Below, piece by piece: positions 2,969 through 39,259 of a stretch of 64,000 bases of DNA. The notes beneath the pieces were generated by a model. The model was not told the DNA's origin, did no database searches, and saw nothing but the letters and a program-made list of their open reading frames with translations. Numbering within the stretch: the stretch's first letter is position 1; each line of letters begins with the position of its first letter. Origin of the DNA: an uncultured Gammaproteobacteria bacterium (lineage in GTDB: Bacteria; Pseudomonadota; Gammaproteobacteria; UBA9214); the NCBI GenBank assembly GCA_963803275.1, contig CAWDLS010000014.1, positions 91,567 to 155,566 on the forward strand, written 5' to 3'. The position numbers and the translations under genes were made by a program.

Positions 2969-3577
2969 GCGCCCGCTTCCGGACCGGCCAAACGGTCATT
3001 CCCGGCTATCACGTGTAGGTCTTGGATGCAGTGCCGGTTCAACCGATCGATGCAACACAAGCAAAAATCGCTTCCACTGGCGTTGGCAAGGATATGCCGG
3101 CAGCAAACCTGGTGACCGACAGGGTAAGGAACAACCGGTCCGGTCAAGGTGGACTGCTAAAGAAAATCCGGTATCGACCGTAATCCTTCAGGAGCCGAAC
3201 TCCCGCAAACCATCCACTGCACGGAAGCAGAGTTCGATGTCATAACCTTCAGGGAGTGAAACCATGTGTATCGCAATGACAGGGCCCGGCAGTACGGGCG
3301 GCAACAGGATACGCCGTCCGTGCCGTAACGTTGTCGCTACACAGGGTGCCCGTGAAGCCGGTATGGTCCCGGCTGCCTGAACTTGCAGCGGATGCCATGA
3401 ATAAAATTCAGTCCCTGGAATCGCTGGCGCCCCTTGTGCCCGATTTGGCTGAAGACTGCAGGATCTGCCACGAAGGCGAAGACCTGTTCCGGCGTCATTC
3501 GCTGAATGTGGACGTCAGCGAACTGCGAACCTTCTGAATCCTTCCATTCCGACCCGACTCACTGTGGAGCATCCAAC

Positions 3578-6079
3578 ATGAACACCAAGAACCTGCTCAC
3601 GATTCCGCCACACGACCACTCGGGTTTCGACGTGGAAGCGCTCAAGCGCGCCATCGCCAACCGGCTCACGTACACGGTTGGCAAGGACGGTTACACGGCC
3701 ACCGACCGTGACTGGCTGCACACGCTCTGCTATGCGGTGCGCGACCGCCTGATCGAACGCTGGATGGAGACGCAGCGCAGTTATTACCACTCTGACGCCA
3801 AGCGCGTGTACTACCTCTCACTCGAATTTCTCATCGGGCGCACGCTCTATAACGCACTGCTCAACATGAAACTCGATGAACCCGTGCGTGAGGCGCTCGC
3901 GGGGATCGGGCTGGACCTCGAGGCGCTGCGCGAACAGGAATTCGAAGCCGGGCTTGGCAACGGCGGCCTCGGGCGTCTCGCAGCCTGTTTCCTTGATGCG
4001 ATGGCCACACTGGGCATCCCCGGCGTGGGTTACGGCATACGCTATGAATACGGCATGTTTCATCAGCACATCGAGAACGGCCAGCAGACGGAGAAATCGG
4101 ACCCATGGCTGCGTTTCGGGAATCCGTGGGAGTTCCCGCGCCCGGAGGTACTCTATCCGGTGCAGTTTAACGGTCACGTGGTGCAGGTCCGCGACGAGCA
4201 CGGGCAGACCCGGCATCACTGGGTGGACACCGTGCTGGTGAATGCCATGGCCTATGACATGCCGGTGCCGGGTTACGGCAACAACACGGTGAACAACCTG
4301 CGTCTCTGGTCGGCCAAGGCCACGCGCGATTTCGATCTGCGGCTGTTCAATTCCGGAAACTACATCAATGCGGTCGAGGAAAAGACCGCGTCCGAGAACC
4401 TGTCGAAGGTGCTCTATCCCGACGACAGCACCGAGGACGGGCGCGTCCTGCGACTCAAGCAGGAGTATTTCTTCGCCAGCGCCTCACTGCAGGATATCCT
4501 GTTCCGCTACCTCAAGACGCACGAGGGTTTTGACGCCTTGCCGGACAAGGTTGCCATCCAGCTGAATGATACGCATCCGGCCATCGCGATTCCCGAACTG
4601 ATGCGGCTGCTCATGGACGTTCACCACCTCGGCTGGGAAAAGGCCTGGGATCTCACCACACGCACTTTCTCCTACACCAACCACACGCTTATGCCCGAGG
4701 CGCTCGAGACCTGGGCAGTCGGCCTGATTGGGCACATGCTGCCGCGCCACCTCGAGATCATCCAGGAAATCAATCACCGCTTCCTCATCGACGTGCGCCA
4801 TCGGTTCCCCGGTGACGAAGGTATCGTGTCCCGCCTGTCGCTGATCGATGAGTCTCAGGACCGCCGCGTCCGCATGGCGCATCTGGCCGTCGTAGGCAGT
4901 CATCACGTGAACGGGGTGTCAGCACTGCACTCACAGCTCATGCGCGAGTCCATTTTCGCTGACTTCCATCGCATGAGCCCGAACAAGATTCTAAATATGA
5001 CCAACGGCATCACGCCGCGCCGCTGGCTCAACCAGGCAAATCCGCGCCTGTCAGGGCTGATCACAGCAACCATCGGCGATGGCTGGATAAGGAATCTGGA
5101 TGAGCTGAAGCAGCTGGTTCCGTACGCGAGCGACCCGGCATTCCAGTCGGCATTCCGCACCGTCAAGACCGCCAACAAGGCTGACCTTGCAAGACTTGTA
5201 CACGACCGGCTCGGCATCCAGGTCGATCCTGCCTCGCTATTCGATATACAGGTGAAACGTATCCATGAATACAAGCGGCAGATGCTTAATCTGCTGCACG
5301 TCGTTACACGCTACAACTACCTGCGCGCGGGTCAGGATCTCGTTCCACGCACGGTTATTTTCGCCGGTAAGGCGGCGCCGGGCTACGCGCGCGCCAAGCT
5401 CATCATCCAGCTGATCCACTCGGTCGCTGATGTTGTTAATAATGATCCCGCTACGCGCGGATTGCTCAAAGTCGCCTTCATCCCGAACTACAACGTTACC
5501 ACAGCAGGCGACATCATCCCGGCAGCAGATCTGTCCGAACAGATATCGACGGCGGGCACCGAGGCCTCCGGAACAGGCAATATGAAACTGGCCCTGAACG
5601 GTGCACTGACCATTGGAACGCGTGATGGCGCCAACGTCGAGATTCGCGATGAAGTGGGCGAGGAGAACATCTTCCTGTTCGGGCTGACCTGTGACGAAGT
5701 AAAAGACCTGGCCCGCACCGGCTATCGCCCGGTGGATCATGGCCACGCCAATCCCGATCTGGTCCAGGCTCTCGACATGATCGGTCAGGGTTACTTCTCG
5801 CCTGAATCTCCCGACATGTTCCGCTCCATCACCGACAGCCTGTGGCAGCATGACCCCTATCTGCTGATGGCAGACTACGCCTCCTACATGGACTGCCAGG
5901 AACGCGTGGACGCGCTGTACTGCGACCCGGCGGCATGGGCACGACGTGCCATCCTCAACGTGGCGAAAATGGGCAGGTTCTCGGCCGATCGCACCATCTG
6001 TGAGTACGCAGAGCATATCTGGCATGTGACACCGGTGTTGCCGGACTCTCAGGAGCTCTGGCGTGCGTTGCGTGCCTAG
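3578..6079 (+). CDS. glgP: Glycogen/maltodextrin phosphorylase
   Basis: The pyridoxal-phosphate site EASGTGNMKLALNGALTIGTRDGANVEI and family-wide similarity support the call. The listed ORF begins at 3506, but the ATG at 3578 (MNTKNLL) has a ggagc RBS and gives the expected ~833 aa. Confidence 0.9.
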   Translation: MNTKNLLTIPPHDHSGFDVEALKRAIANRLTYTVGKDGYTATDRDWLHTLCYAVRDRLIERWMETQRSYYHSDAKRVYYLSLEFLIGRTLYNALLNMKLDEPVREALAGIGLDLEALREQEFEAGLGNGGLGRLAACFLDAMATLGIPGVGYGIRYEYGMFHQHIENGQQTEKSDPWLRFGNPWEFPRPEVLYPVQFNGHVVQVRDEHGQTRHHWVDTVLVNAMAYDMPVPGYGNNTVNNLRLWSAKATRDFDLRLFNSGNYINAVEEKTASENLSKVLYPDDSTEDGRVLRLKQEYFFASASLQDILFRYLKTHEGFDALPDKVAIQLNDTHPAIAIPELMRLLMDVHHLGWEKAWDLTTRTFSYTNHTLMPEALETWAVGLIGHMLPRHLEIIQEINHRFLIDVRHRFPGDEGIVSRLSLIDESQDRRVRMAHLAVVGSHHVNGVSALHSQLMRESIFADFHRMSPNKILNMTNGITPRRWLNQANPRLSGLITATIGDGWIRNLDELKQLVPYASDPAFQSAFRTVKTANKADLARLVHDRLGIQVDPASLFDIQVKRIHEYKRQMLNLLHVVTRYNYLRAGQDLVPRTVIFAGKAAPGYARAKLIIQLIHSVADVVNNDPATRGLLKVAFIPNYNVTTAGDIIPAADLSEQISTAGTEASGTGNMKLALNGALTIGTRDGANVEIRDEVGEENIFLFGLTCDEVKDLARTGYRPVDHGHANPDLVQALDMIGQGYFSPESPDMFRSITDSLWQHDPYLLMADYASYMDCQERVDALYCDPAAWARRAILNVAKMGRFSADRTICEYAEHIWHVTPVLPDSQELWRALRA

Positions 6080-22508: not shown

Positions 22509-23345
22509 TTAATAGTGCGCCGCATCGGAGGCGGCGGTTTCCGCCATTTCTTCTGCAACCGGCTCCGCCGTGACCGCCGGCGCATGGCGGCGCAGGTATT
22601 CACCGGCCAGCGCCAGGTAGGCCATGGCACCACGCGAACCCTTGTCATAGCGCAATACCGGCAAACCGTGACTGGGTGCCTCGGCCAGCCGCACGTTGCG
22701 CGGAATGATGGTGCGGTAGACCTTGTCACCGAAGTGTTGCTGCAATTGCGCGGATACCTCCGTCGCAAGCCGGTTACGCGCATCGAACATGGTGCGCAGC
22801 AGTCCCTCGATGCCCAGCTCGGGATTGACCGCCACGCGCACCTGTTCCACGGTATCGATTAGCGCAGACAGACCTTCCAGCGCGTAATACTCGCACTGGA
22901 TCGGTATCATCACACTGTGCGCGGCGGCCAGTGCATTGACCGTGAGCATGTTCAGCGACGGCGGACAATCGATCAGGATAACATCGTAATCGGCCAGGAT
23001 ATAACTGAGTGCTGCACGCAGGCGACGCTCGCGATCGTCCTTGCCCATCAATTCGACCTCGGCCGCGGTCAGGTCGGCATTGCCCGGCAGTATGTCGTAA
23101 CCGGCCGCGTCGGCGTGCACTATCGCACCGCGGATGTGGCTATGCCCGAGCAGGACATCATAGCCGGTGCGGCTGATCTCGTGCTTGTCGAGCCCGCTGC
23201 CCATGGTCGCATTGCCCTGGGCATCGAGATCGATCAGCAGCACACGGCGGCCGGTCTCCGACAGGGATGCGGCGAAGTTGACACTGGTCGTGGTCTTGCC
23301 AACACCGCCTTTCTGGTTGGTAACGGCGATTATCCTGCCCGTCAT
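22509..23345 (-). CDS. parA: Chromosome partitioning ATPase ParA (Soj)
   Basis: It has the deviant Walker A box (VTNQKGGVGKTTT). It is 278 aa and intact. Confidence 0.92.
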   Translation of the reverse strand: MTGRIIAVTNQKGGVGKTTTSVNFAASLSETGRRVLLIDLDAQGNATMGSGLDKHEISRTGYDVLLGHSHIRGAIVHADAAGYDILPGNADLTAAEVELMGKDDRERRLRAALSYILADYDVILIDCPPSLNMLTVNALAAAHSVMIPIQCEYYALEGLSALIDTVEQVRVAVNPELGIEGLLRTMFDARNRLATEVSAQLQQHFGDKVYRTIIPRNVRLAEAPSHGLPVLRYDKGSRGAMAYLALAGEYLRRHAPAVTAEPVAEEMAETAASDAAHY

Positions 23346-23357
23346 GTGGCTGCCTCC

Positions 23358-24040
23358 TCAACGTTGGCGGAAAGCTGCATGGCGACCACGTGGCGTTCGG
23401 CATCCAGCCCCGGCACCTTCAGTGCAATGACATCCGCGTGCACGCCGGTGGCTTCCAGACATTCGATTTCCGTCATCGGGTAAACGCCCTTCATCGCCAG
23501 CATGTGGCCGTGCGGGGTGCATAGCTGCGCGGCATGGCGATAGTACTTCTGGCAGATCGGAAAATGCGCGGCAGATCATGGTATCGAACAGCACTTCGGC
23601 CGGTAATCCTCGATGCGCGGGTTCACCAGTGTGACGTTGTCGAGGTTGAGTATGCCGAGCGTCTGCTGTACGAAGCGCAGCTTCTTGCTGCTGCTGTCGA
23701 GCAGCACGAATTCGCGTTCGGGACACGCGATGGCCAGCGGTATGCCGGGCAGTCCCGCGCCTGTGCCGATATCGATCACACGTTCGCCGTACAGGTGATC
23801 GACGATCGACAGGCTGTCGAGGATGTGGCGTGTAATGATGTCGGTTGGCTTGCGCACCGAGGTCAGGTTGTAGACCCGGTTCCAGTTCATCAGCTCGGTG
23901 ACATATTCCATCAACAGATCGTCACCGCCCAGACGCTCTTCCAGGCCCAGCTCCTGGATGCCGTCCTCGAGCAGCTCACCGGGATCAACGAAGCCGTTGT
24001 TACGTCCCTTGCGGTTGCGGTTGTAGAGTCCGGTATACAT
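23358..24040 (-). pseudogene. rsmG: 16S rRNA m7G527 methyltransferase RsmG (GidB), interrupted by at least 2 frameshifts. The 3' boundary is approximate.
   Basis: The N-terminal fragment carries WNRVYNLTSVRKP...HILDSL and the SAM motif IDIGTGAGLPGIPLAI. The downstream fragment carries FDTMICRAF in another frame. Confidence 0.7.
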
Positions 24041-24066
24041 GTCCTGTCAGTTGCGATTGGCGAATG

Positions 24067-25962
24067 CTATGCACGCTTGCGTAGCAGCCGGTTTTTCTTG
24101 ACGTGTATCAGCAGCAGCGATATGGCAGCCGGTGTGACGCCCGGGATGCGTGCTGCCTGGCCGATGGTCTGCGGTCTCGCATCCAGCAGTTTTTCACACA
24201 CCTCGCTGGACAGGCCACGTACCGCATTGTAATCGAATTCCAGCGGCAATGTTTGTTCCTGGTGGCGACGCTGGCGATCGATCTCGCCGGCTGACGATCC
24301 AGGTAGCCCGCGTACTTCGCCTGGATCTCGACCTGCTCGGCCACCGCCCCATCGGCTACCGGCGGTCCCAGCCTCTCGATGGCGGTCAGTGCATGGTAGC
24401 CCAGCTCCGGACGGCGCAGCAGTTCACAGCGCAAACTGCTCGCGCGCGAGTGGCTTGTCGAGCAGCGCCGCCAGCGCGTGCGGCCGGCATGGCTGTCCGG
24501 GCGGACCAGCAAGGCCGCGAGGCGCTGCTGTTCACGCTCGATGGCCGACCGCTTGATGCAGAAGGCCATCCAGCGCCGTTCGTCCACGAGACCCAGCCGG
24601 CGGCCCGTTTCCGTCAGGCGCAGGTCGGCGTTGTCCTGGCGCAGCGTCAGGCGGTATTCCGCGCGACTGGTGAACATGCGGTAGGGCTCGCTGGTGCCGC
24701 GGGTCACCAGGTCATCGATCAGCACGCCCATGTAGGCCTGCTCGCGCCCGGCGTCCAGGGCTCTTCGCCCTGCGCCTGGCGTGCGGCATTCAGGCCGGCA
24801 ATCAGTCCCTGCGCGGCAGCCTCCTCATAACCGGTGGTTCCGTTGATCTGACCGGCAAAAAACAGCCCGCCGATGACCCGGGTCTCCAGCGAATACAGCA
24901 GATCGCGCGGATCGAAGAAATCGTACTCGATGGCATAGCCGGGGCGGGTGATATGTGCGCGCTCGAAACCGGCGATGGAATGCACCAGTGCCAGTTGCAC
25001 GTCATAGGACAGGCTGGTGGAGATCCCGTTGGGATAGACCTCGTGGGTGTCCAGCCCCTCCGGCTCGATAAAGATCTGGTGCGAGGAGCGGTCGGCAAAG
25101 CGTACCACCTTGTCCTCGATAGATGGACAGTAGCGCGGTCCGACGCCCTCGATCGCGCCGCTGTAGAGCGGCGAATCACCGAGCCCGTCGCGAATGATGT
25201 CATGGGTACGGGCGTTGGTACGGGTGATGTGGCAACTGACCTGGCGCGGGTGATCTGCTGCGCTGCCCAGAAAGGACATCACCGGTACCGGCTCGTCACC
25301 GGGCTGTGCCTGCAGCAGGCGGTAATCGATGCTGCGCCCGTCGATGCGCGGGGGGGTACCGGTCTTCAGTCGCGCAACACGCAGCGGCAGTTCGCGCAGC
25401 GCGCTGCGCAGAGTGCATTGGCAGGTGGGTCGCCGGCGCGGCCGCCGGCATAGCTGGCCGGGCCGATATGGATACGTCCACCCAGGAAGGTCCCGACCGT
25501 CAACACCACGGAACGGGCATGGAAACGCAAGCCCATCGCGGTCACCACGCCGGTGACGCGCCCGCCGGCGACGATCAGGTCCTCTACCGCCTGCTGAAAC
25601 AGCTGCAGGCCGGGCTGGCCTTCCAGCGTCTGGCGCACGGCGTGCCGGTACAGCACGCGGTCGGCCTGGGCGCGCGTCGCCCTGACCGCATGACCCTTGC
25701 TGGCATTCAACACGCGAAACTGGATGCCGGCCTGATCGGTGACCTGCGCCATCAGCCCCCCCAGTGCGTCGATCTCGCGGACCAGGTGGCTTTTACCGAT
25801 GCCGCCGATCGCCGGGTTGCAGCTCATCTGGCCCAGTGTTTCCAGGTTATGCGTCAGCAACAGGGTCCGTGCGCCCAGCCGGGCCGCGGCCAGCGCGGCC
25901 TCGGTGCCGGCATGACCGCCGCCCACCACGATGACGTCATACTGCATCGGCCCTGAGCCCAC
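24067..25962 (-). pseudogene. mnmG: tRNA uridine-5-carboxymethylaminomethyl modification enzyme MnmG (GidA), interrupted by at least 3 frameshifts
   Basis: The N-terminus is [25 protein letters not shown], a FAD-binding motif. Middle fragments carry [15 protein letters not shown]. The C-terminal 60-aa ORF carries [23 protein letters not shown]. The total span is 632 codons, close to the ~630 aa expected. Confidence 0.85.
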
Positions 25963-26123
25963 GATGATGCCCCCGTAAAAGAAGCCGGAATTCTACGCCC
26001 CGGCCGGAAAACCTGGCAACGCAGGCCGGCCGTGAACGGCGGTTCGATTCCATCTCATAATAGCTATATATCGGAATATATTGTGCTAAAATATTTCGAA
26101 TTTCACTATATAGGGTAAATTGA

Positions 26124-26702
26124 ATGAGACTTCTTGAGCTCAGGGGTAGCGAGGGTGACGCCGATCCCAGGCGCGCCGCCCTGTTACACAAGGCAGACAG
26201 GAAGCCAGCAATTGACGCCCGAACCATCAACAGGCCGGCACCCGGAAAGGAACCTGCGGTGGACACCCGGGTCTTTCCGATCAACACACGCCCCCCCGAA
26301 ACACCGCTGCGCCGGCGGCCGTTCGACCTGGAACAGCTGCAGCGGCGCATCGAGGAACTGGAACGGCGCATACAGGAACGTGCGCGCAGCAGCGCTGTGT
26401 CTGCACAGGGCGGCAAGGAACTGGAACAGCTCAGACAGCGCGTCAAGTTGCTGGAACGGCGCATCGAAGGCGAATTGTGGTCGGCGCGGCAACGCGAACA
26501 CACCCTGCTTGAAATGCTGGCGCGCCCACCGATTCGGACCGTGGTCAAGGAATATTGCACACGCCTCCTGCGCAATGCCCCGCCGACCACCCTGCGCTGG
26601 CTGAAAGCCGCCGGCAAGGCGTGGTGGCAGGATGCCCAGCCATTGTGGTGGCCGCGCTTCGCCGCCCTCTGGCAGGAAGCACTGGCGCGCGCGCGCAGCT
26701 GA
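26124..26702 (+). CDS. Hypothetical coiled-coil protein (192 aa)
   Basis: It contains an ELERRIQER / LLERRIEGEL heptad-like region. I recognise no family and the start is uncertain. Confidence 0.35.
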   Translation: MRLLELRGSEGDADPRRAALLHKADRKPAIDARTINRPAPGKEPAVDTRVFPINTRPPETPLRRRPFDLEQLQRRIEELERRIQERARSSAVSAQGGKELEQLRQRVKLLERRIEGELWSARQREHTLLEMLARPPIRTVVKEYCTRLLRNAPPTTLRWLKAAGKAWWQDAQPLWWPRFAALWQEALARARS

Positions 26703-26726
26703 ACGCCCTGTCGCGGGAAACCGCGA

Positions 26727-27395
26727 TTACTTGAGTGCGACCGTGCGCAACCCGGCCCACAGCAGCGCCAGCTGCTGGCGGTACATGGCACCGATCGCGG
26801 CCGGGTTGGCATGCTGCATGGCCAGTGGCACGCCGTAAAATACCGACACCAGGGCGACCATGGCTGCCGCGATCGCTGTGTTGCCCGGCAGTTCTCCCTG
26901 GTCGATCGCGGCCTGCAACGATTGCCTTAGCAATCCCTCCAGACTGTCATCCGGCAACTGTTCGATACCCTCGAGATCGGAGAACGCAATCATGCGCTCG
27001 GCCGGTGTGATCTCCAAACCCGGATTGCGCACGCGTGCACGCGCCTCGTGGGCAATGATTTCACCCATCAGCCCCGGCTTCTTCTGGATCTGGATCGCGG
27101 TGTAGCGGAACAGGGCGTCGATCACCGCGATCCCCTTGTGCTGCTGCGCGGCCTGCCGGCCGTACCAGTTCAGTTCCAGCGTCCACAGCCGGTCCAGATA
27201 GATGATCAGATCTTCCTTGCGGGGGAAGTAATTGAAGAAGGTCGCCTCGGAAATCTGTACCCGCTCGCACAGGGCCTTGACCGACAGCGTCTCGAACGAG
27301 GCCGCATCGAGATGCCGGGTGGCTGCCTCTGCCAGGGCGAGGCGGGTACGGGCAAACTTGCGTTCACGCAATGTGGGGCGCGGGCTGTCAGACAT
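26727..27395 (-). CDS. TetR family transcriptional regulator
   Basis: The N-terminal HTH (TRLALAEAATRHLDAASFETLSVKALCERVQISEATFFNYFPRKEDL) is typical of TetR. It is 222 aa. Confidence 0.85.
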   Translation of the reverse strand: MSDSPRPTLRERKFARTRLALAEAATRHLDAASFETLSVKALCERVQISEATFFNYFPRKEDLIIYLDRLWTLELNWYGRQAAQQHKGIAVIDALFRYTAIQIQKKPGLMGEIIAHEARARVRNPGLEITPAERMIAFSDLEGIEQLPDDSLEGLLRQSLQAAIDQGELPGNTAIAAAMVALVSVFYGVPLAMQHANPAAIGAMYRQQLALLWAGLRTVALK

Positions 27396-27424
27396 AATAT
27401 TAAAGCGGACTCCAATTATATATG

Positions 27425-27765
27425 AAGCGTTACAGTTATAACTTACTGATTACAATAAAATATGTCAGTTATTCCCCCAGTCCCTGATAAACCCGAATTA
27501 AAGACATAGTTTTCCTATGGAAATAAACCATGGAGAGGAAAAGCACTGCCATATCACGGCATGATGTCCCGTCTCTGCCGGCTGAGTCTTGAAAATATAA
27601 ATTAAAATCATAAAGTTACAAGATATTACAGGATTGTATAAAATTGGTCGCCTATTCAGAAACAGTCACCAGGCTGCGCAATGTAAGGCATGATTGAATA
27701 ACGGTCAACAAGATATTTCGTGATGGCTCTATTTTTCCTCAGGATCACCGCTCCCGGCCGCAGTG
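27425..27765. other. 340-bp AT-rich non-coding island between the TetR gene start and the mnmE 3' end
   Basis: The visually estimated GC is about 35% against about 63% for the flanks. I see no ORF over 25 codons. It contains the TetR promoter and presumably the mnmE terminator. Confidence 0.6.
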
Positions 27766-27771
27766 GCACCG

Positions 27772-29131
27772 TCACTTGCCGATGCAGAAGCTGCTGAAGA
27801 TCATGCCCAGCAGGTCGTCGCTGCTGACCTCGCCGGTGATCTCACCCAGAGCCTGCTGCCCCGCACGCAGCTCCTCGGCGAGCAGTTCGCCGGCGTGCTG
27901 TTGCTCGAGTTGCCGGACGCCAGCGAGGACATGGGCGTGTGCGCGCTCCAGTGCATCGAGGTGCCGGCGGCGTGCGCTGAATTCGCCCTCGCACTCTCCG
28001 GTAAACCCGGCCACCTGCTTGAGATGGCTGCGCAGGGCATCCATACCGGCACCGGTGAGCGCGGAAAGGGCGACGCCCGGCTGTCCGTCCACCGCTCAGG
28101 GCCGGGCGAACGGCCGCTCAGGTCCACCTTGTTGTAGATGCGGGTATGCGGTACGCCGGGCGGCAGGCTGTCGAGGATCCCGGCATCAGCGGGGCAAAAA
28201 CCCGCCTGGTCATCGATGACCAGCAGCACGTGATCGGCCTGTGCCATGGCCTGCCGGGCGCGCTGCATCCCGGCCCGTTCGACCGGATCGGCACTGTCGT
28301 GCAGGCCGGCCGTGTCGATGATGTGCAGCGGCATGCCATCGAGCTGGATGTGCTCGCGCAAGCACATCGCGGGTGGTGCCGGGTATTGCGGTGACGATGG
28401 CGGCCTCGCGGCCCGGCAGGGTATTCATCAGGCTGGACTTGCCGGCATTGGGACGCCCGGCGATCACCAGGGTCATGCCATCGCGCAGCAACCGCGCCCT
28501 GGCGGGCACGGGCAAGCAGCGTCGTGAAAGATCGTCGCGCCAGTTGCTGCAGCCCCTGCTGCAGGCCGCTCGTCCGACGAGAAAATCGATCTCCTCTTCG
28601 GGAAAATCGATGGCCGCCTCGACATAGCATGCGCAGCGCGTCAGCGTTCGCGGTCAGATCATGTACCTGCCGGGAAAACTCGCCCTGCAGGGAGCGCACC
28701 GCGGCGCGCGCGGCCTGCGCGGTGCCGCTGCCGATCAGGTCGGCGATCGCCTCGGCCTGGGCAAGGTCGAGCTTGTCGTTGAGAAAGGCGCGCTCGGAAA
28801 ATTCGCCCGGACGCGCCGGGCGCGCGCCGAGCGCCAGCACACGCGCCAGCAGCAGGTCGAGCACCACCGGACCGCCGTGGCCGTGCAGCTCCAGCACATG
28901 TTCGCCGGTGAAGGAGGCCGGCGCCGGGAAATACAGCGCGAGGCCGGAGTCGATCAGCGTGCCGTCAGCGGCCCGGAAATCCCGCCGTCTCGCCTGGCGC
29001 GCCGGTGGCAGCGTCCCCAGCAGGCGGCACGCGATGTCCGGCACGTCCGGTCCGGAAATGCGCACGATGCCAATGCCGCCCTGTCCGGGCGGCGTGGCGA
29101 TGGCGGCGATGGTGTCGGTGTTCGGCGTCAC
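27772..29131 (-). pseudogene. mnmE: tRNA modification GTPase MnmE (TrmE), interrupted by at least 3 frameshifts
   Basis: The N-terminus is [28 protein letters not shown]-domain motifs (IIDTAGL, VLLVIDD) lie in a second frame. The C-terminus ...[11 protein letters not shown] (MnmE C-terminal CxGK) lies in a third frame. Confidence 0.85.
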
Positions 29132-29159
29132 GATATAATCGAGCGCCGGCGGCTGAACG

Positions 29160-30822
29160 TTATTTTTTTGCGCCGCGCTCGATGCGCCGCGTGATCACGT
29201 ATTGCTGGGCGATGGACAGGGTGTTGTTGACCACCCAGTACAGCACCAGCCCGGAAGGGAAGAAGGCGAAGAACACCGTGAACACCACCGGCAGTGCCAT
29301 CATGACCTTGGCCTGGATCGGGTCCATGGGCGCCGGATTGAGCTTCTGCTGGATGAGCATGGTCGCGCCCATCAGCAGCGGCAGGATGTAGAACGGGTCC
29401 GGTGACGACAGGTCGTGTCATCCAGCAGCATGAACGGCGCCTGGCGCATCTCGACGCTTTCCAGCAGCACCCAGTAGAGCGCGATGAAGACCGGCATCTG
29501 CACCACGATCGGCAGGCAGCCGCCGAGCGGGTTGATCTTCTCTTTCTTGTAAAGCTCCATCATCGCCTGGTTGAGCTTCTGCCGGTCGTCGCTGTAGCGC
29601 TCCTTGAGCGCCTGCAGGCGCGGCGCCAGCTTGCGCATATTGGCCATGGAGCGGTAGCTGGTTTCCGACAGCTTGTAGAACGCCAGCTTGATCAGCATCG
29701 TGAGCAGCACGATGGACCAGCCCCAGTTGCCGATCAGCTTGTGAATGGTCTTCAGCAGCCAGAACAGCGGCTGCGCGAGCACCGTCAGCCGGCCGTAGTC
29801 GACCGTCAGCTCGAGACCCGGTGGCGACCTTCTTCATTTGGTCCTGCAGTTTCGGGCCCGACATACAGGCGCGTGCTGAACACCGTATGGTCGCCGGCGG
29901 CAACGTCGCGTTGCGGTGAGATCAGCCCGATGACATAACGCTCGATTGCTGAGCGTCTTGGTGTAGTAGCGCTCGGCTCACTGCGTTCGGGTATCAGTGC
30001 GGCAAGGAAATAATGTTGCATCATGGCGGCCCAGCCGTCGGTGACGTTGCGGTCGAGCGTCCTCTTCTGCATGTCCTCGAACGTGATTTTCTCGTACTTG
30101 TCTTCCGGACTGTAGAGAACGCCGCCCGTATAGGTGCGAATGAATGTGGTCTTGGCGGGCTTCGCCGCAGCGGGTGCGTTGCAGCTGCCGGTATTGTCGC
30201 CCGTGTCCATTCATGGTCACTGTTGTTTGTTACCTCGTAATCGAGATCGATCACGTGACTGCCGCGATGGAAGATGTAGAGTTTGGTTACCACGACACCG
30301 TCCTGACTGCGCCACACCAGTGGCACCTGCAGGGTGTCCGCGGAATCGGCCATGCGATAGTGTGTCTGCTCCGCGCCGTACACCAGCGTGGTGGGTTGCC
30401 TCCTCGCCCGCGACGCTACGCAGACCCGACTGCATGATGAACAGGTTGGGCAGCGTGTCATTCATCAGCCGGAAGGGGGGGGAGTCGGGCTTGTTTGTCG
30501 CCTTGTAGTCGCGCAGGTCCACCTGGCGCAGGTCACCGCCCGTGGTATCGATGTCGACCCTGTACAGGTCGGTTTCCACATGGATCTGCTGGCCGGTCTC
30601 CAGCAGGCCGCTCTCTGCCGGCGTGACGTCCGCCGCGCTGACTGCATTCGGCGCACCCGGGATATCACCGTCACTTGCGGTGGATTCGGCGGCGGCCTGC
30701 TCCACCTGCTGTGCAGTTTGGGCAGGTGCGGGCGCCGGTCCGTAGTCCTTCATCCAGGCCTGCCACAGCAGCAGCGCCACGAACGACAGTGCGACAAACA
30801 GCACCATGCGCTGATTATCCAT
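29160..30822 (-). pseudogene. yidC: Membrane protein insertase YidC, in 4 fragments with at least 3 frameshifts
   Basis: The N-terminal fragment is [23 protein letters not shown]. The central fragments carry [38 protein letters not shown]. The C-terminus is [43 protein letters not shown]. Confidence 0.85.
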
Positions 30823-31051
30823 GCGTGTGGCGGTGCTCCGTTTCCGGCACCGGATCGATGCCGCCCGGGTGCCAGGGATGGCAGCGCATCAGGCGCTTAA
30901 GGGCGAGACCGGTCCCGCGTAGCACGCCGAAGCGCTCGACGGCCGTCAGGGCATAACCGGAACAGCTGGGATAGAAGCGGCAGTGGCTCCCCAGCCAGGG
31001 GCTGAGCAGGTACCGGTATGCCCTGATCAGCTGGATGATCAGCCAGCGCAT
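30815..31051 (-). CDS. yidD: Membrane protein insertion efficiency factor YidD
   Basis: [39 protein letters not shown] is the YidD/haemolytic-domain signature. It overlaps the yidC start. Confidence 0.88.
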
Positions 31052-31404
31052 GTTTGAATCAATTGTTTCAAGAGCTTTTCCATTGCCGTTCCAAGCGCCT
31101 GTGCGGACAGGCCGGCCACGTCGTTACGTCCAAGAACCACGATATCCAGGGCGCCGAGTTCCGTCTGCCTGTGTCGAAAACGTTCTCTCACCACACGCTT
31201 GATTCGGTTTCGTGCTACCGCGCTCCTGGCGACCTTGCGCGATATCGCCAGTCCCAGCCGCGGATGGCCAAGTGCGTTCGTGACTGCCAGCACCGTCAGC
31301 CAGCGGTTGGCCGCCTTGCACTGACAATGCTTGAAAACGCGCTGGTAATCGGCCGGTTCAGTGAGTCGTACCCGTCTGGAAAAACGTAGCAATCCCGGGC
31401 ACAA
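31039..31404 (-). CDS. rnpA: RNase P protein component. The start is uncertain: TTG at 31404 or 31392. The listed ORF to 31455 would overlap rpmH.
   Basis: [17 protein letters not shown]...[28 protein letters not shown] matches RnpA (RNR motif). It lies between rpmH and yidD as in most bacteria. Confidence 0.8.
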
Positions 31405-31414
31405 GGCAACGCAG

Positions 31415-31549
31415 TCAGACTGACAGCCGGGCCCGACCCTTCGCACGACGGGCATTAATCACGCGCCGGCCATTCTTGGTGCTCATGCGCGCACGAAACC
31501 CGTGTGTGCGCTTGCGTCTCAGGTTGCTGGGTTGATAGGTTCTTTTCAT
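31415..31549 (-). CDS. rpmH: 50S ribosomal protein L34
   Basis: [44 protein letters not shown] is 44 aa and canonical L34. It was not in the ORF track because it is under 60 aa. Confidence 0.92.
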
Positions 31550-31676
31550 GGCACGTCACGTCCGGAATAGATTTCAGAGACCACACCCTGGCAAGCGGCG
31601 TGAAAGGGCGCAAAGCGTACTGTTCAGCCGGGTTGAAATGTCAACTGTCCGGCGATGCAGGCGACTGGCGACAGGG

Positions 31677-31734
31677 TGTGGATAACTTGTTTCGACAGGT
31701 ATAGACTCCCCCACCTGCGTAGACGGATGGATAA
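31677..31734. promoter_or_regulatory. Two DnaA boxes in the rpmH-dnaA spacer
   Basis: TGTGGATAA at 31677-31685 is a perfect reverse-orientation TTATCCACA box. GATGGATAA at 31726-31734 matches 8 of 9. Both lie upstream of the dnaA GTG start, which has an aagggggg RBS. Confidence 0.7.
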
Positions 31735-31752
31735 CCGAAAGGGGGGGTCAAG

Positions 31753-33094
31753 GTGGAAGTTACGCTCTGGCAGAAGTGTCTGGTTCGACTCGAACATGAA
31801 CTGCCGGAGCAACAATTCAATACCTGGATACGACCCCTGCATGCTATTGAAAACGGCGAGAATCTGCGCCTGCTCGCACCCAACCAGTTCGTTCTCGACT
31901 GGGTCAGGAAACACCACTTCGATACCATCTCACAGACACTGCACGAAATCGGCCCGGGTAGCGAAACCCGCCTGCAGCTCGACATCGGCAGCAGCAAGAA
32001 GATCACCCGAATCAACCCGGTGACGCCCGTCGTACCGGCTGCCGTGGAGCCGACAGCCGCCGCAGTCCAGCACAAGAGCAACCTGAACCCGGAGTTCACC
32101 TTCGACGACCTTCGTGGGAGGCAAGTCGAACCAGCTCGCCCGCGCCGCGTCCATCCAGGTCGGGGAAAATCCCGGGGGCGCGTACAATCCGCTGTTCATC
32201 TACGGCGGTGTCGGGCTGGGTAAGACCCATCTCATGCATGCCGTCGGCAACATGATCCTGAACAACAGGCCGAACGCCCGGGTGGTCTATCTGCACTCCG
32301 AACGTTTCGTCGCCGACATGGTGCAGGCGCTGCAGCACAACGCCATCAACGAGTTCAAGCACTTTTACCGCAACGTCGACGCCCTGCTCATCGACGATAT
32401 TCAGTTCTTCGCCAGGAAGGAACGCTCTCAGGAAGAATTCTTCCACACATTCAATGCCTTGCTTGAAGGCCAGCAACAGGTCATCCTGACCTGTGACCGC
32501 TATCCGAAGGAGGTCGACGGCCTGGAAGACCGCCTCAAGTCACGCTTTGGCTGGGGACTCACGGCCGCCATCGAGCCGGCCGAGCTCGAGACGCGGGTTG
32601 CGATCCTCATGAGCAAGGCCAGCCAGGTCAGCATCGAGCTGCCATCAGACGTGGCCTTCTTCATCGCCAAGCGCATCCAGTCCAATATCCGCGAGCTGGA
32701 GGGCGCCTTGCGACGGGTCATCGCCAGCGCCCGTTTCACCGGGCAACCCATCAACCTGGAACTCACCCGGGAGGCGTTGCGTGACCTGCTTGCATTGCAG
32801 GACAAGCTGGTGACGATCAGCAATATCCAGAAGGTCGTCGTCGAGTACTACAAAATCAGGATCGCGGACCTGTCGTCGGCACGCCGCAGTCGCACCATCA
32901 CGCGACCGCGCCAGATTGCCATGGCGCTGGCCAAGGACCTGACCACGCACAGTCTGCCGGAAATCGGCGAGGCCTTTGGCGGCCGCGATCATACGACGGT
33001 ACTGCACGCCTGCCGCAAGGTGCAGGAATTGCGTGCCAGCGACAATCGTATCAACGAGGATTACAACAACCTGTTGAGAACCCTGACAGCATAA
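31753..33094 (+). pseudogene. dnaA: Chromosomal replication initiator DnaA with a GTG start and a single 1-nt insertion near 32105-32112
   Basis: The N-terminal ORF has the DnaA N-domain. The second ORF carries [10 protein letters not shown]...[22 protein letters not shown] (AAA+ Walker A) and a C-terminal DNA-binding domain. Reading gacgac-c-ttcgtg without one c gives the conserved [11 protein letters not shown]. Confidence 0.9.
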
Positions 33095-33105
33095 ACTGGA
33101 AAAAC

Positions 33106-33237
33106 TGTGGATAACTGATCGGGCACGATCTTATCCCGTTTTATCCACAGGCGCCCCACAGGACTTCCGGTGCCTGGTTTGACAGTTATCATTGCGTCAG
33201 GTAGCTGATAAGCAAGGCGAGAAACAGCTTATCAACC
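33106..33237. promoter_or_regulatory. DnaA-box cluster in the AT-rich dnaA-dnaN spacer (candidate oriC or DnaA-regulated region)
   Basis: There are two perfect boxes, TGTGGATAA (33106-33114) and TTATCCACA (33141-33149), plus four TTATC-core degenerate boxes (33131, 33186, 33205rc, 33229). The spacer is about 40% GC within a ~63% GC context, has three GATC sites, and carries an AT-rich run (ttaaagaattaaccaaagatctttaaat) next to the dnaN start. Confidence 0.6.
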
Positions 33238-33293
33238 GCTATTTCGTCACTAACAAATAACAGGGTTAAAGAATTAACCAAAGATCTTTAAAT

Positions 33294-34394
33294 ATGAAAT
33301 TCACGATCCAAAGAGAAGCTTTTCTGAAACCGCTCCAGCAGGTCATCGGTGTCGTGGAGCGTCGACAAACATTACCGGTACTGGGTAACGTGCTGGTGAA
33401 TGCAGGCAAGAAAGGCATCAAGCTCACGGCAACCGATCTGGAAGTGGAACTGCAGGCACAGCTTGCCTTGCCGGTAACCGAGACCGGTGACATTACCCTG
33501 CCCGCCCGCAAGCTGCTGGATATCTGCCGCACACTGCCTGAAGAGGCGGAGCTTGATATCTCGGTGAAGGATGAAAGGGCACTGGTGCGTTCCGGCAAGA
33601 GCCGTTTCACACTGTCGACATTGCCGGCCAGTGAATTTCCTGTCATCGACAAGATCAAGAGCGCACGCAGGTTTTCGATGCCGCAAAATGAGCTGCATGC
33701 CCTGATCGAGCGTACAGCCTTTGCCATGGCGCAGCAGGATGTCAGGTATTACCTGAATGGCCTCATGCTGGAGCCGGCCGGAAAACTGTTGCGTGCTGTC
33801 GCTACGGACGGTCATCGCCTCGCGATGTGCCAGATGGCGGTCGATGTCGGGGACAGTGGTGACCAGCAGGTCATTGTTCCACGCAAGGGTGTTCAGGAAC
33901 TGCACCGCCTGCTGGCCGACAGCGACGCCCCCGTAGCGCTCGAGCTCGGTTCCAACCACATTCGCATCACCACCGAGGATCTGCGTTTCACCTCGAAACT
34001 GATCGACGGGCGTTTCCCGGATTACCAGCGCGTGATCCCAAAGAATGCCGACAAGCAACTGCTGGTCAATCGTGAACTGCTGCGCCAGGCACTGACCCGG
34101 ACATCCATACTGTCGAACGAGAAATACCGTGGTATCCGTCTGGATATATCAAATAATAATATTAAAATACAAGCACATAACCCTGAGCAAGAAGAGGCAG
34201 TTGAGGAAATCGATGCCAATTACAGCAGCGAAAACATCGTGGTCGGATTCAATGTGACCTATGTGCTGGATGTACTCAACGTGCTGGATTCAGACACCGT
34301 TGAGATCTATCTCAATGATGCCAACAGCAGCGCACTGATCAATCGGCCGGGTACGGATGATTGTCGTTATGTCGTCATGCCCATGCGGCTCTAA
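33294..34394 (+). CDS. dnaN: DNA polymerase III beta sliding clamp
   Basis: MKFTIQREAFLKPLQQVIGVVERRQTLPVLGNVL is the canonical DnaN start. It is 366 aa and intact. Confidence 0.95.
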   Translation: MKFTIQREAFLKPLQQVIGVVERRQTLPVLGNVLVNAGKKGIKLTATDLEVELQAQLALPVTETGDITLPARKLLDICRTLPEEAELDISVKDERALVRSGKSRFTLSTLPASEFPVIDKIKSARRFSMPQNELHALIERTAFAMAQQDVRYYLNGLMLEPAGKLLRAVATDGHRLAMCQMAVDVGDSGDQQVIVPRKGVQELHRLLADSDAPVALELGSNHIRITTEDLRFTSKLIDGRFPDYQRVIPKNADKQLLVNRELLRQALTRTSILSNEKYRGIRLDISNNNIKIQAHNPEQEEAVEEIDANYSSENIVVGFNVTYVLDVLNVLDSDTVEIYLNDANSSALINRPGTDDCRYVVMPMRL

Positions 34395-34641: not shown

Positions 34642-35775
34642 TTGACGAACGAGCAGCTCCTGTCTGCACATGGCGATCGGTTACCCGAACTGTATCGCGG
34701 GCTGCAATCCCTAGAGATTATCGACTTCAGGAACATCCAGACTGCGGATCTGCAGTTTTCAGCCGGCCTGAACCTGATCGATGGAGAAAACGCCTCCGGC
34801 AAGACCAGCCTGCTGGAAGCGATCCATACCCTCGGCCGGGTACGTTCGTTTCGTACCCATTCTGTGCAGCAGACGATTCGTTACGGGCAGGCGGCCTTTC
34901 GGCTGGTCGGAAGGATTGCCAGTGCAGACGGGCACGCGATCCCGATAGGAATCGAACGGAGTGCCGACACGCTGAACGTACGCCTGGCAGGCGAGCCGGT
35001 ACGACGCCTGTCCGATCTCGCCGGTTACTTCCCGGTACAGATACTCAGCAGCGATACATCGACCCTGTTCACCGGCGGTCCGCGCTACCGTCGCCAGGTG
35101 CTGGACTGGGCGCTGTTTCACGTGGAACAGGGCTATCGTGATAACTGGCAGCGTTACGCCCGGATACTGAAGCAGAGAAATGCCGCGCTCCGCGGTCATG
35201 CCAGATCGGCACTGATTTCAGCATGGGATGGCGAGCTCGTCGAGGAAGCCGGTGCCATCGACCGTCTGCGACGCGACTACCTCGCCCGGTTTTCGGGATT
35301 ACTGTCCGAAGAATTGCAACACCTGCTGCCGGAAAGTGAACTGGAGGTGCGATATATTCCCGGCTGGCCGGCCGGTCGCACCCTGACCGAATCCCTGGCG
35401 GGCACCCTGGACAAGGATCGCAGTCGCGGCTACACGCACTACGGTGTGCACCGGTCTGATTTCAGATTGATGTTCGATGGTCGGGATATCACGGCGCATT
35501 GTTCACGCGGGCAACAGAAGGCCATCATGGTGGGGTTCATGCTGGCACAGGTCCGTTTGCAGCAGGCGTGTGGATGCCCGGCAGGGGCGTTTTTACTGGA
35601 TGACCTGAGCAGTGAACTCGATCGATCAAATCAGCAACGCGTGCTGCAGGCCTTGCGTGATCTCCATGCACAGGTCTTCATTACGGCCATCGAGGGAGAT
35701 CGCATCGACGCCGCCGGATGGCGGGAGATCAAGCAGTTTCACGTGGAACATGGCGTGATACAGGAAGTGTTATAA
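34642..35775 (+). CDS. recF: DNA replication and repair protein RecF
   Basis: The Walker A box [14 protein letters not shown] is present, with ABC-ATPase-like motifs downstream. It is 377 aa. The start is about 20 aa longer than E. coli RecF, so it is uncertain. Confidence 0.88.
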
Positions 35776-35801: not shown

Positions 35802-38227
<2,426 letters not shown>

Positions 38228-38500: not shown

Positions 38501-39259
38501 TCAGGCCTGTGTCTTCAATGTGGTGATTTCCGCCATACGGTCCTCGATCCAGGTGGCGGCTTCATCCAGCAATTGCTGGGCCGATTTGCCGCTGCTCTCG
38601 ATAGGCTCGCCGATGCGGACCTGGATGACGCCGGGGTGCTTGATGAAACTGCGCCGCGGCCAGTACTCGCCGGCGTTGTGGGCAACCGGTACGATCGGGT
38701 AGCCGGTTTGTTCCGCAAGTATTGCGCCTCCAATACGGTAATGCCCCTTCTGGCCCGGGGGTATGCGGGTTCCTTCGGGAAAGATGACGATCCAGTCGCC
38801 TTCATCCAGTCGCGCCTTGCCCTGTGTGACCAGTTGCCTGATTGCTGCACGGCCACTGCCACGACGGATGGCAATGCATTTCATCAGGGCCAGTCCCCAG
38901 CCAAAAAAGGGTATCCACATCAACTCTCGTTTGGCAACCCAGACCTGTATGGGAAAGATTTGCTGCAGCGCGATGGTCTCCCAGGTCGACTGGTGCTTGG
39001 CAAACACGATGGCGGCGCCGGTCGGGATGTTCCCGGAGCCGACGACCTCATGGGTAAGGTGGCAGGTCACCTTCAGCCACCACAGCATGAAATGCACCCA
39101 GGTTTGCACCAGCGCCCAGCGTGTGGATAACGGGAACGGGAAGGTGAACAGCAGCAACACGGCGTAGATCACGACAGAGACCGGGAACACGACCCAGAAT
39201 GCAAGCGAGCGCAACCACAGGACCAGGGATGTGCCGTTGGATGTGCTGTCTGTGGCCAT
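38501..39259 (-). CDS. plsC: 1-acyl-sn-glycerol-3-phosphate acyltransferase (lysophospholipid acyltransferase)
   Basis: The HX4D-type motif region (AKHQSTWETI) and FPEGTR motif are present. It is 252 aa. Confidence 0.85.
   Translation of the reverse strand: MATDSTSNGTSLVLWLRSLAFWVVFPVSVVIYAVLLLFTFPFPLSTRWALVQTWVHFMLWWLKVTCHLTHEVVGSGNIPTGAAIVFAKHQSTWETIALQQIFPIQVWVAKRELMWIPFFGWGLALMKCIAIRRGSGRAAIRQLVTQGKARLDEGDWIVIFPEGTRIPPGQKGHYRIGGAILAEQTGYPIVPVAHNAGEYWPRRSFIKHPGVIQVRIGEPIESSGKSAQQLLDEAATWIEDRMAEITTLKTQA

Follow-up and report, generated by a model that had tools for sequence, protein, structure and literature searches.

An origin of replication placed between dnaA and dnaN is an ordinary arrangement: it is widely regarded as the common bacterial layout, it is known in Bacillus subtilis, Clostridioides difficile, Campylobacter jejuni, and Streptomyces coelicolor, and it has already been described in Gammaproteobacteria. 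Here we describe the 199-bp spacer between these two genes in a 64-kb stretch of DNA from an uncultured gammaproteobacterium (the window, by which we mean the whole stretch analyzed). We consider it highly probable that this spacer, at positions 33095 to 33293, represents the chromosome's single, continuous origin (oriC) and that the conserved DnaA box on the other side of dnaA serves the autoregulation of that gene. A sequence-only reading of the window had suggested that oriC, or at least its unwinding element and most of the DnaA-binding capacity, may lie between dnaA and dnaN and not upstream of dnaA, and this location is supported by box statistics, by a conserved layout, by the mutual exclusivity of box clusters on the two sides of dnaA, by strand skew, and by the content of the upstream spacer.

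In Thioalkalivibrio sulfidiphilus HL-EbGr7, oriC has been predicted in a 251-bp dnaA-dnaN spacer, and the rpmH-dnaA spacer is 193 bp long (bioRxiv 10.1101/2025.08.05.668638). The window resembles this genome in its parB-gyrB gene order and in its short rpmH-dnaA spacer (198 to 203 bp versus 193 bp), although it belongs to a different family, its dnaA-dnaN spacer is shorter (199 versus 251 bp), and the Thioalkalivibrio oriC is also a prediction. In Xanthomonas campestris pv. campestris 17, which belongs to a different order from the organism of the window, a 273-bp dnaA/dnaN region is said to be the minimal autonomously replicating origin (work ascribed to Yen et al. in 2002); it reportedly has several clusters of AT and just three DnaA boxes that match the consensus.

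The genes that flank oriC1 of Pseudomonas have the same order as those in the window, and yet the spacer pattern is the opposite one. In Pseudomonas and Halomonadaceae, a long, box-rich rpmH-dnaA spacer (Halomonadaceae median, 534 bp) is combined with a short dnaA-dnaN spacer (median, 65 bp) (bioRxiv 10.1101/2025.08.05.668638), whereas the window has neither the long upstream spacer nor the boxless downstream spacer by which that type is recognized. Gene order alone therefore does not reveal the position of oriC.

DnaA boxes are concentrated between dnaA and dnaN

The dnaA-dnaN spacer contains two perfect DnaA boxes (TTATCCACA), one box with 2 mismatches, and six TTATC cores within 199 bp (TTATC starting at 33131, 33141, 33186, and 33229 and GATAA starting at 33110 and 33207). 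We shuffled the spacer 20,000 times while keeping its own composition, and its perfect-box count, its weighted box score, and its core count were each matched by none of the shuffles. No other 250-bp box cluster in the window scores as high: the spacer reaches 11, and the next two reach 6 and 5. Perfect boxes occur four times in the 64 kb (31677 on the minus strand, 33106 on the minus strand, 33141 on the plus strand, and 39122 on the minus strand), and three of the four flank dnaA. The rpmH-dnaA spacer holds one perfect box, a count matched by 20 of 20,000 shuffles, and a weak box with 2 mismatches (TTATCCATC at 31726, minus strand). The spacer between dnaA and dnaN is identical across three independent assemblies (L001, L002, and L003), and its boxes are therefore not artifacts.

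These counts agree with the two perfect and four degenerate TTATC boxes that the sequence-only reading had listed for the dnaA-dnaN spacer, as does the composition of the AT-rich stretch adjoining dnaN (33249 to 33293, 76% AT). One of the four degenerate boxes, CTGATAAG (33205 to 33212), lies at a conserved position of the integration host factor (IHF) type and is better read as an IHF site. The two boxes listed for the upstream spacer (203 bp) are both present, but the one at 31726 is weak and unconserved.

We compared the locus with relatives found by a DnaN scan that took one genome per species and yielded 80 loci of 13 kb each; rpmH, dnaA, and dnaN were located in each locus, and both spacers were measured in 70 of them. 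The nearest relatives are gammaproteobacterial genome bins (72 to 83% DnaN identity), followed by Thiohalobacter and Thiogranum (64 to 68%), which are the closest named relatives. Loci from Woeseiaceae, Steroidobacteraceae, and others, with a few from Halomonas and Cellvibrio, are more distant. This comparison bears on the simplest alternative, namely, that the boxes cluster by chance or through the composition of an AT-rich spacer and have no specific function. Such spacers do hold more TTATC-like words than GC-rich coding DNA. However, shuffling at constant composition never reached the observed counts, and the boxes are invariant at 56 to 83% DnaN identity while the rest of the spacer varies, which leaves chance with a negligible probability.

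The fourth perfect box (39122 to 39130, minus strand) has a 1-mismatch box about it at a distance of 200 bp (38911 to 38919, plus strand), and both lie within a 1-acylglycerol-3-phosphate acyltransferase-like gene (38501 to 39259, minus strand). We considered this pair as a DnaA-titration or reactivation site and rejected it, given its location inside the acyltransferase gene and the lack of the perfect box at the homologous codons in all 27 relatives checked; the box at 39122 is probably a chance occurrence.

The three GATC sites noted earlier in the spacer are present (starting at 33117, 33127, and 33283), but they are neither enriched nor conserved: 792 of 20,000 shuffles reached three sites, and none of the three is conserved in relatives. 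GATC occurs 437 times in the window, or once per 146 bp, which is approximately twice the mononucleotide expectation of 228 sites. An origin of the Dam/SeqA type, marked by GATC sites or 13-mers, was rejected because the GATC sites of the spacer are not enriched over the GATC rate of the window itself and are not conserved and because the one partial 13-mer (33283) is unconserved. Repeated GATC-containing 13-mers in the DNA-unwinding element are a feature of the dam clade and are not expected outside it (bioRxiv 10.1101/2025.08.05.668638).

The spacer has a conserved, origin-like layout

Alignments and box maps showed that a single order, orientation, and spacing of elements is kept over 60 or more related loci, out to Woeseiaceae. 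In the window, these elements are as follows.

33095-33293: dnaA-dnaN spacer, 199 bp, GC 0.44 (window, approximately 0.60); predicted continuous oriC
33096-33104, minus strand: degenerate box CTGGAAAAA, part of an inverted box pair at the dnaA stop codon
33106-33114, minus strand: perfect box TGTGGATAA, the other member of the inverted pair
33131-33139, plus strand: forward site TTATCCCGT, first of three in 10- to 11-bp phase
33141-33149, plus strand: perfect box TTATCCACA, second phased forward site
33152-33160, plus strand: half-site CGCCCCACA, third phased forward site
33198-33210, minus strand: IHF-like site CAGGTAGCTGATA, the reverse complement of TATCAGCTACCTG, with 1 mismatch to WATCARNNNNTTR
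33229-33237, plus strand: last forward box, R1-like, TTATCAACC (2 mismatches), facing the AT-rich tail
33238-33261, plus strand: 12-nt spacer GCTATTTCGTCA, then trio-like CTA ACA AAT AAC
33249-33293: AT-rich tail, predicted DNA-unwinding element, 76% AT, ending at the dnaN ATG

At the position of the inverted pair, relatives carry TGTGGATAAnnTGTGGATAA. In their alignment, the TTATCC, the TTATCCACA, and the downstream CACA (within a conserved CCACA half-site) of the forward sites are invariant, and the phasing of these sites suggests that they may form a DnaA-oligomerization array. A variable stretch separates them from the IHF-like motif, which differs by one mismatch from YAANNNNYTGATW, the reverse complement of the IHF consensus, and which has its conserved G at a distance of exactly 21 nt from the last forward box, on the upstream side. 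Among the related loci, an IHF-like motif with at most 1 mismatch is found at this exact 21-nt offset in 29 of 60, compared to 0.35% at control offsets. A gammaproteobacterial origin signature consisting of a DNA-unwinding element, DnaA-trios, box R1, and an IHF site with its conserved C 21 bp away has been put forward as a general rule (bioRxiv 10.1101/2025.08.05.668638), and the window has the IHF part of it, with 1 mismatch at the exact offset. The same offset is seen in the annotated record of E. coli MG1655 oriC, where the C of the IHF site (ATCAA) lies 21 nt from box R1 (R1-IBS1). The TTGAT of the IHF-like motif was also considered as a −35 element for dnaN and was rejected, as inspection of the sequences by eye revealed no acceptable −10 element at 16 to 18 nt.

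The consensus of the last forward box in relatives is TTATCCACAG, and the variant found in the window recurs in two Thiogranum loci (L019 and L021). This box is followed in relatives by a spacer of 12 to 13 nt with a GC-rich end and then by a stretch with 3-nt periodicity (consensus CTA ATA A.A A.A). The tail is AT rich in all relatives and, in the window, is among the eight least stable segments of 30 to 100 bp. No Shine-Dalgarno-like purine run is visible at 33262 to 33293 or in close relatives, and the tail abuts the start codon of dnaN.

Several of these properties are shared with oriC of E. coli. Both are compact (199 bp versus 232 bp as annotated), both have a box that faces an AT-rich stretch (in the window, a predicted unwinding element) and has an IHF site (in the window, an IHF-like one) 21 nt off its other side, and in both, further boxes follow first in the same orientation and then in the opposite one. 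The E. coli origin consists of left and right DnaA-oligomerization halves, which the box orientations in the window resemble. In contrast, the E. coli origin lies between mnmG and mioC, far from dnaA, and has three 13-mers and many conserved GATC sites (Dam/SeqA), where the window has one unconserved partial 13-mer and unconserved GATC sites.

With Bacillus subtilis (PMC8287927, PMC6669920), the window shares the location between dnaA and dnaN and the succession of a forward box, a short GC-containing spacer, trinucleotide repeats, an AT-rich region, and dnaN. The basal unwinding system known from B. subtilis is defined by a box with at most 2 mismatches, a spacer of 0 to 16 nt, and, on the trio strand, three or more trinucleotides whose middle base is A (PMC8287927). 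Such an arrangement is present in 27 of 60 relatives, in 16 of these 27 after a 13-nt spacer (17 offsets scanned), and the trio array is thus real in the lineage; the box-trio spacer has been reported to peak at 10 to 13 bp (PMC8287927). Although its relatives have clear trio arrays after the 13-nt spacer, starting with CTA or TTA and continuing with ATA, the array of the window is degenerate. Its box TTATCAACC (2 mismatches), the 12 nt that follow, and a CTA trio correspond to the first parts of the system, but no run of three or more consecutive trios was found within 0 to 16 nt of the box, the longest being two, and among the triplets at homologous positions, the one canonical triplet is the CTA nearest the box, which reads 3'-GAT-5' (the consensus trio) on the opposite strand. 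Hence, we do not class this origin with the basal unwinding system, even though the two share a plan.

The combination of a degenerate R1-like box and trio array with a well-kept IHF site is mildly unusual. Because the box and trios are degenerate while the IHF-type site and its 21-nt spacing are kept, opening might rest on a bend made by IHF that carries the upstream DnaA array to the AT-rich tail and not on growth of a DnaA filament from box to trios, a proposal that we regard as unlikely. If true, it would be a natural case of one unwinding mode replacing another within a conserved origin scaffold.

The box cluster lies on one side of dnaA or the other in related genomes

The box-rich dnaA-dnaN spacer is the rule in this lineage. 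The weighted box score is higher downstream than upstream of dnaA in 62 of the 70 loci with both spacers measured, and in these 62 loci, the median spacer measures 207.5 bp on the upstream side and 209.5 bp on the downstream side. Five loci, from Halomonas, Billgrantia, and Cellvibrio (L040, L044, L050, L075, and L079), show the Pseudomonas pattern, with rpmH-dnaA spacers of 358 to 565 bp that hold many boxes and dnaA-dnaN spacers of 62 to 85 bp that hold none. The cluster therefore sits on one side of dnaA or the other and moves as a unit, as expected for a single origin. Separately, in one locus (L046), the rpmH-dnaA spacer is 229 bp long and holds one box, and the dnaA-dnaN spacer, of 60 bp, holds none; this locus fits neither type, and so its origin may lie elsewhere.

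This distribution also bears on the possibility that the origin is located elsewhere (upstream of dnaA, like oriC1 of Pseudomonas; upstream of gidA/mnmG, like the origin of E. coli or oriC2 of Pseudomonas; or outside the window) and that the boxes before dnaN only regulate dnaN or dnaA. The gene order is that of Pseudomonas, DnaA boxes can serve as transcriptional operators, an AT-rich segment is present upstream of gidA (approximately 26042 to 26140), and the nominal minimum of the cumulative GC skew is found at 27876, all of which could be accommodated by such an arrangement. However, the Pseudomonas-type loci have no boxes before dnaN, and hence boxes at this position are not a general need of dnaN regulation. 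The rpmH-dnaA spacer of the window is short and GC rich and has one conserved box, compared to the 358- to 565-bp multibox spacers of the Pseudomonas type, and the conserved succession of boxes, IHF site, box, trios, and AT-rich tail is the layout of an origin and not that of an operator. Further, the region upstream of gidA (25800 to 27700) lacks any box with 2 or fewer mismatches, and its AT-rich segment was accordingly rejected as an origin of the E. coli type or of the Pseudomonas oriC2 type. Taken together, we find an origin elsewhere very unlikely.

The rpmH-dnaA spacer resembles a divergent promoter region

An alignment of 20 rpmH-dnaA spacers from close relatives revealed several conserved blocks, which are listed here with the weak box found by the box search.

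31550-31752: rpmH-dnaA spacer, 203 bp, GC 0.57
31639-31644, minus strand: TTGACA (TGTCAAC near-invariant in the alignment), candidate −35 element of rpmH
31677-31685, minus strand: perfect DnaA box, reading TGTGGATAA on the plus strand, unchanged in 20 of 20 close relatives and also found in most other relatives
31700-31707, plus strand: TATAGACT, with AGACT invariant, at a constant distance of 14 nt downstream of the box in each of the 20 relatives aligned, candidate −10 element of dnaA
31726-31734, minus strand: weak box TTATCCATC, 2 mismatches, in this species only

If TAGACT is the −10 element of dnaA, then the −35 element falls on TGGATA, within the box at 31677. Autorepression by DnaA classically uses a box placed over the −35 element of the dnaA promoter, and we propose that this box is probably the autoregulatory operator of dnaA. 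A strict scan for sigma-70 promoters and terminators over 31400 to 33400 found no promoter, and the promoter assignments are accordingly suggested by the conserved −35-like and −10-like blocks only. A further block (GAAAGGGCGCAAAG..TACTGT, 31603 to 31626) between the rpmH start codon and TTGACA is kept in the closest relatives and is probably the −10 element and leader of rpmH. No AT-rich segment was found in this spacer, which appears to be a conserved divergent promoter region and not an origin.

An Rfam scan of 30800 to 33500 (E up to 1) returned only a subthreshold match to AsdA, the antisense RNA of Salmonella dnaA mRNA (32201 to 32281, minus strand; 31 bits versus a gathering threshold of 52; E = 0.00086). 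The match is antisense to the conserved Walker-A portion of dnaA, and conservation of the dnaA coding sequence is its most likely cause.

The invariance of the upstream perfect box in all 20 close relatives, and its presence in most others, is an observation that would favor a bipartite origin, as in Bacillus subtilis or Helicobacter pylori, in which the boxes at 31677 and 31726 cooperate with the dnaA-dnaN cluster and dnaA is looped out. B. subtilis needs a large box cluster upstream of dnaA in addition to the downstream region and is not known to have an IHF site. Bipartite origins in which dnaA is the spacer gene do occur in Gram-negative bacteria, but a bipartite origin is defined by two subregions that each contain a box cluster (PMC4285127), and the upstream spacer of the window has one conserved box. 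The second upstream box, at 31726, is weak and species specific. The fixed distance of 14 nt between the box at 31677 and the −10-like element fits a promoter operator, and the spacer itself, with approximately 200 bp and a GC content of 0.57, is filled with promoter-like conserved blocks. The bipartite arrangement that had been raised as an option in the sequence-only reading is thus poorly supported, there being one conserved upstream box and no cluster, and we consider it unlikely.

Strand composition and the weight of the evidence

Over the 64-kb window, the cumulative G-minus-C curve has a broad valley at 22 to 34 kb and then rises, and the best two-segment changepoint of the GC skew is at 33350. 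As skew over 64 kb cannot separate two spacers that lie 1.4 kb apart, we compared the GC skew at third codon positions in dnaA with that in dnaN. For dnaA of this species it is −0.177, and for dnaN it is +0.021; over 68 loci of the dnaA-dnaN type, the two genes average −0.031 and +0.051, respectively, with p = 3e-8 in a paired Wilcoxon test. The five Pseudomonas-type loci give a difference of 0.01 between the two genes. The contrast fits a dnaA that lies to the left of the origin and is transcribed toward it.

A number of observations weigh against placing the origin in the dnaA-dnaN spacer or against parts of that assignment. The nominal minimum of the cumulative GC skew, at 27876, lies 5 kb to the left of the locus, and the third-position contrast could reflect gene-specific codon usage, the control group comprising 5 loci and the between-group comparison giving p of approximately 0.08 to 0.09. 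The replicon is seen over 64 kb only, such that a second or different origin could lie elsewhere on it. Several segments of the window are less stable than the AT-rich tail of the spacer, which comes 5th to 8th according to the segment size used. The R1-like box of this species is degenerate, with 2 mismatches, and the trio stretch falls short of the published minimum of three trios. Finally, the organism is uncultured and known from metagenome assemblies only, and the origin is a sequence-based prediction.

The boxes, their excess over shuffled sequence, their conservation and constant spacing, the base composition, and the change of skew are observed directly; binding of DnaA and IHF, the place of unwinding, and the promoters are inferred. 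For the dnaA-dnaN spacer as a single, continuous oriC, we envisage the following course of initiation. DnaA would bind with high affinity to the boxes at 33106 and 33141 and would also occupy the R1-like box at 33229, and ATP-DnaA would then fill the adjoining weak sites at 33096, 33131, and 33152, which are phased at 10 to 11 bp. IHF or a similar bending protein may bind at 33198 to 33210 and bend the segment that separates the R1-like box from the box array. The DnaA oligomer could thereby engage the strand past the R1-like box, where the 12-nt spacer and the CTA trio lie, and the 76% AT tail that abuts the dnaN start codon would open and serve as the site of helicase loading. The box at 31677 would remain outside the origin, where its overlap with the putative −35 element of dnaA would let DnaA repress its own gene.

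Gene neighborhood and quality of the window sequence

The genes around the two spacers, identified with NCBIfam profiles, are as follows.

30815-31051, minus strand: yidD (yidC is also on the minus strand)
31039-31455, minus strand: rnpA
31415-31549, minus strand: rpmH, ribosomal protein L34 (TIGR01030, 90 bits), last in the minus-strand block yidC-yidD-rnpA-rpmH
31753-33094, plus strand: dnaA, split in the window by one extra base near 32107-32110
33294-34394, plus strand: dnaN, beta clamp
34642-35775, plus strand: recF
to 38227, plus strand: gyrB

Further to the left, the minus strand carries mnmE, a TetR-family gene, gidA, gidB, parA, parB, the atp operon, glmU, glmS, and uvrD. These profiles agree with the genes and the Pseudomonas-type order named in the sequence-only reading. 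The switch of gene orientation between rpmH and dnaA that it took as a hallmark of the origin is real, but it is only local, since plus-strand genes occur far to the left and the genes to the right of gyrB (38.5 to 43.5 kb) are on the minus strand. Likewise, its statement that all genes to the left lie on the minus strand is correct from approximately 6.8 to 31.5 kb with the exception of a small gene at 26124 to 26702, but a glycogen phosphorylase gene (3506 to 6079) and a GGDEF/EAL gene (24 to 1910) are on the plus strand.

One of the independent assemblies, the 921-kb metagenome contig L001, was found through an exact match to the DnaN protein and is 98.7% identical to positions 23267 to 44400 of the window. 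It is contig_18114 of ENA ERZ25039539, in which the locus occupies 460 to 482 kb. The two differ by 49 single-base insertions or deletions, 39 of which are extra bases in the window, at 23547 to 30386, 31563 to 31623, 32107 to 32110 (within dnaA), 36002 to 37125, and 41251. These differences break gyrB and yidC in the list of open reading frames of the window, and others fall within the gidA and mnmE intervals. Five extra bases lie in the rpmH-dnaA spacer. The dnaA frame of the window runs from 31753 to 32110 and then shifts by one frame, whereas the DnaA of L001 is intact at 446 amino acids, and we treat the frameshift as a presumed assembly error. Overall, the insertions and deletions in the window look like those of an error-prone assembly of the long-read type and not like real pseudogenes.

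Meaning for the lineage

The same layout has already been predicted for Thioalkalivibrio and reportedly demonstrated in Xanthomonas, and the locus described here opens no new question. The assignment is of use mainly for annotation, as it puts the origin of this lineage of uncultured Gammaproteobacteria between dnaA and dnaN. The set of approximately 60 loci describes a compact origin of approximately 200 bp that combines the dnaA-dnaN location with box-IHF spacing of the E. coli type, and it may aid tools for origin prediction.

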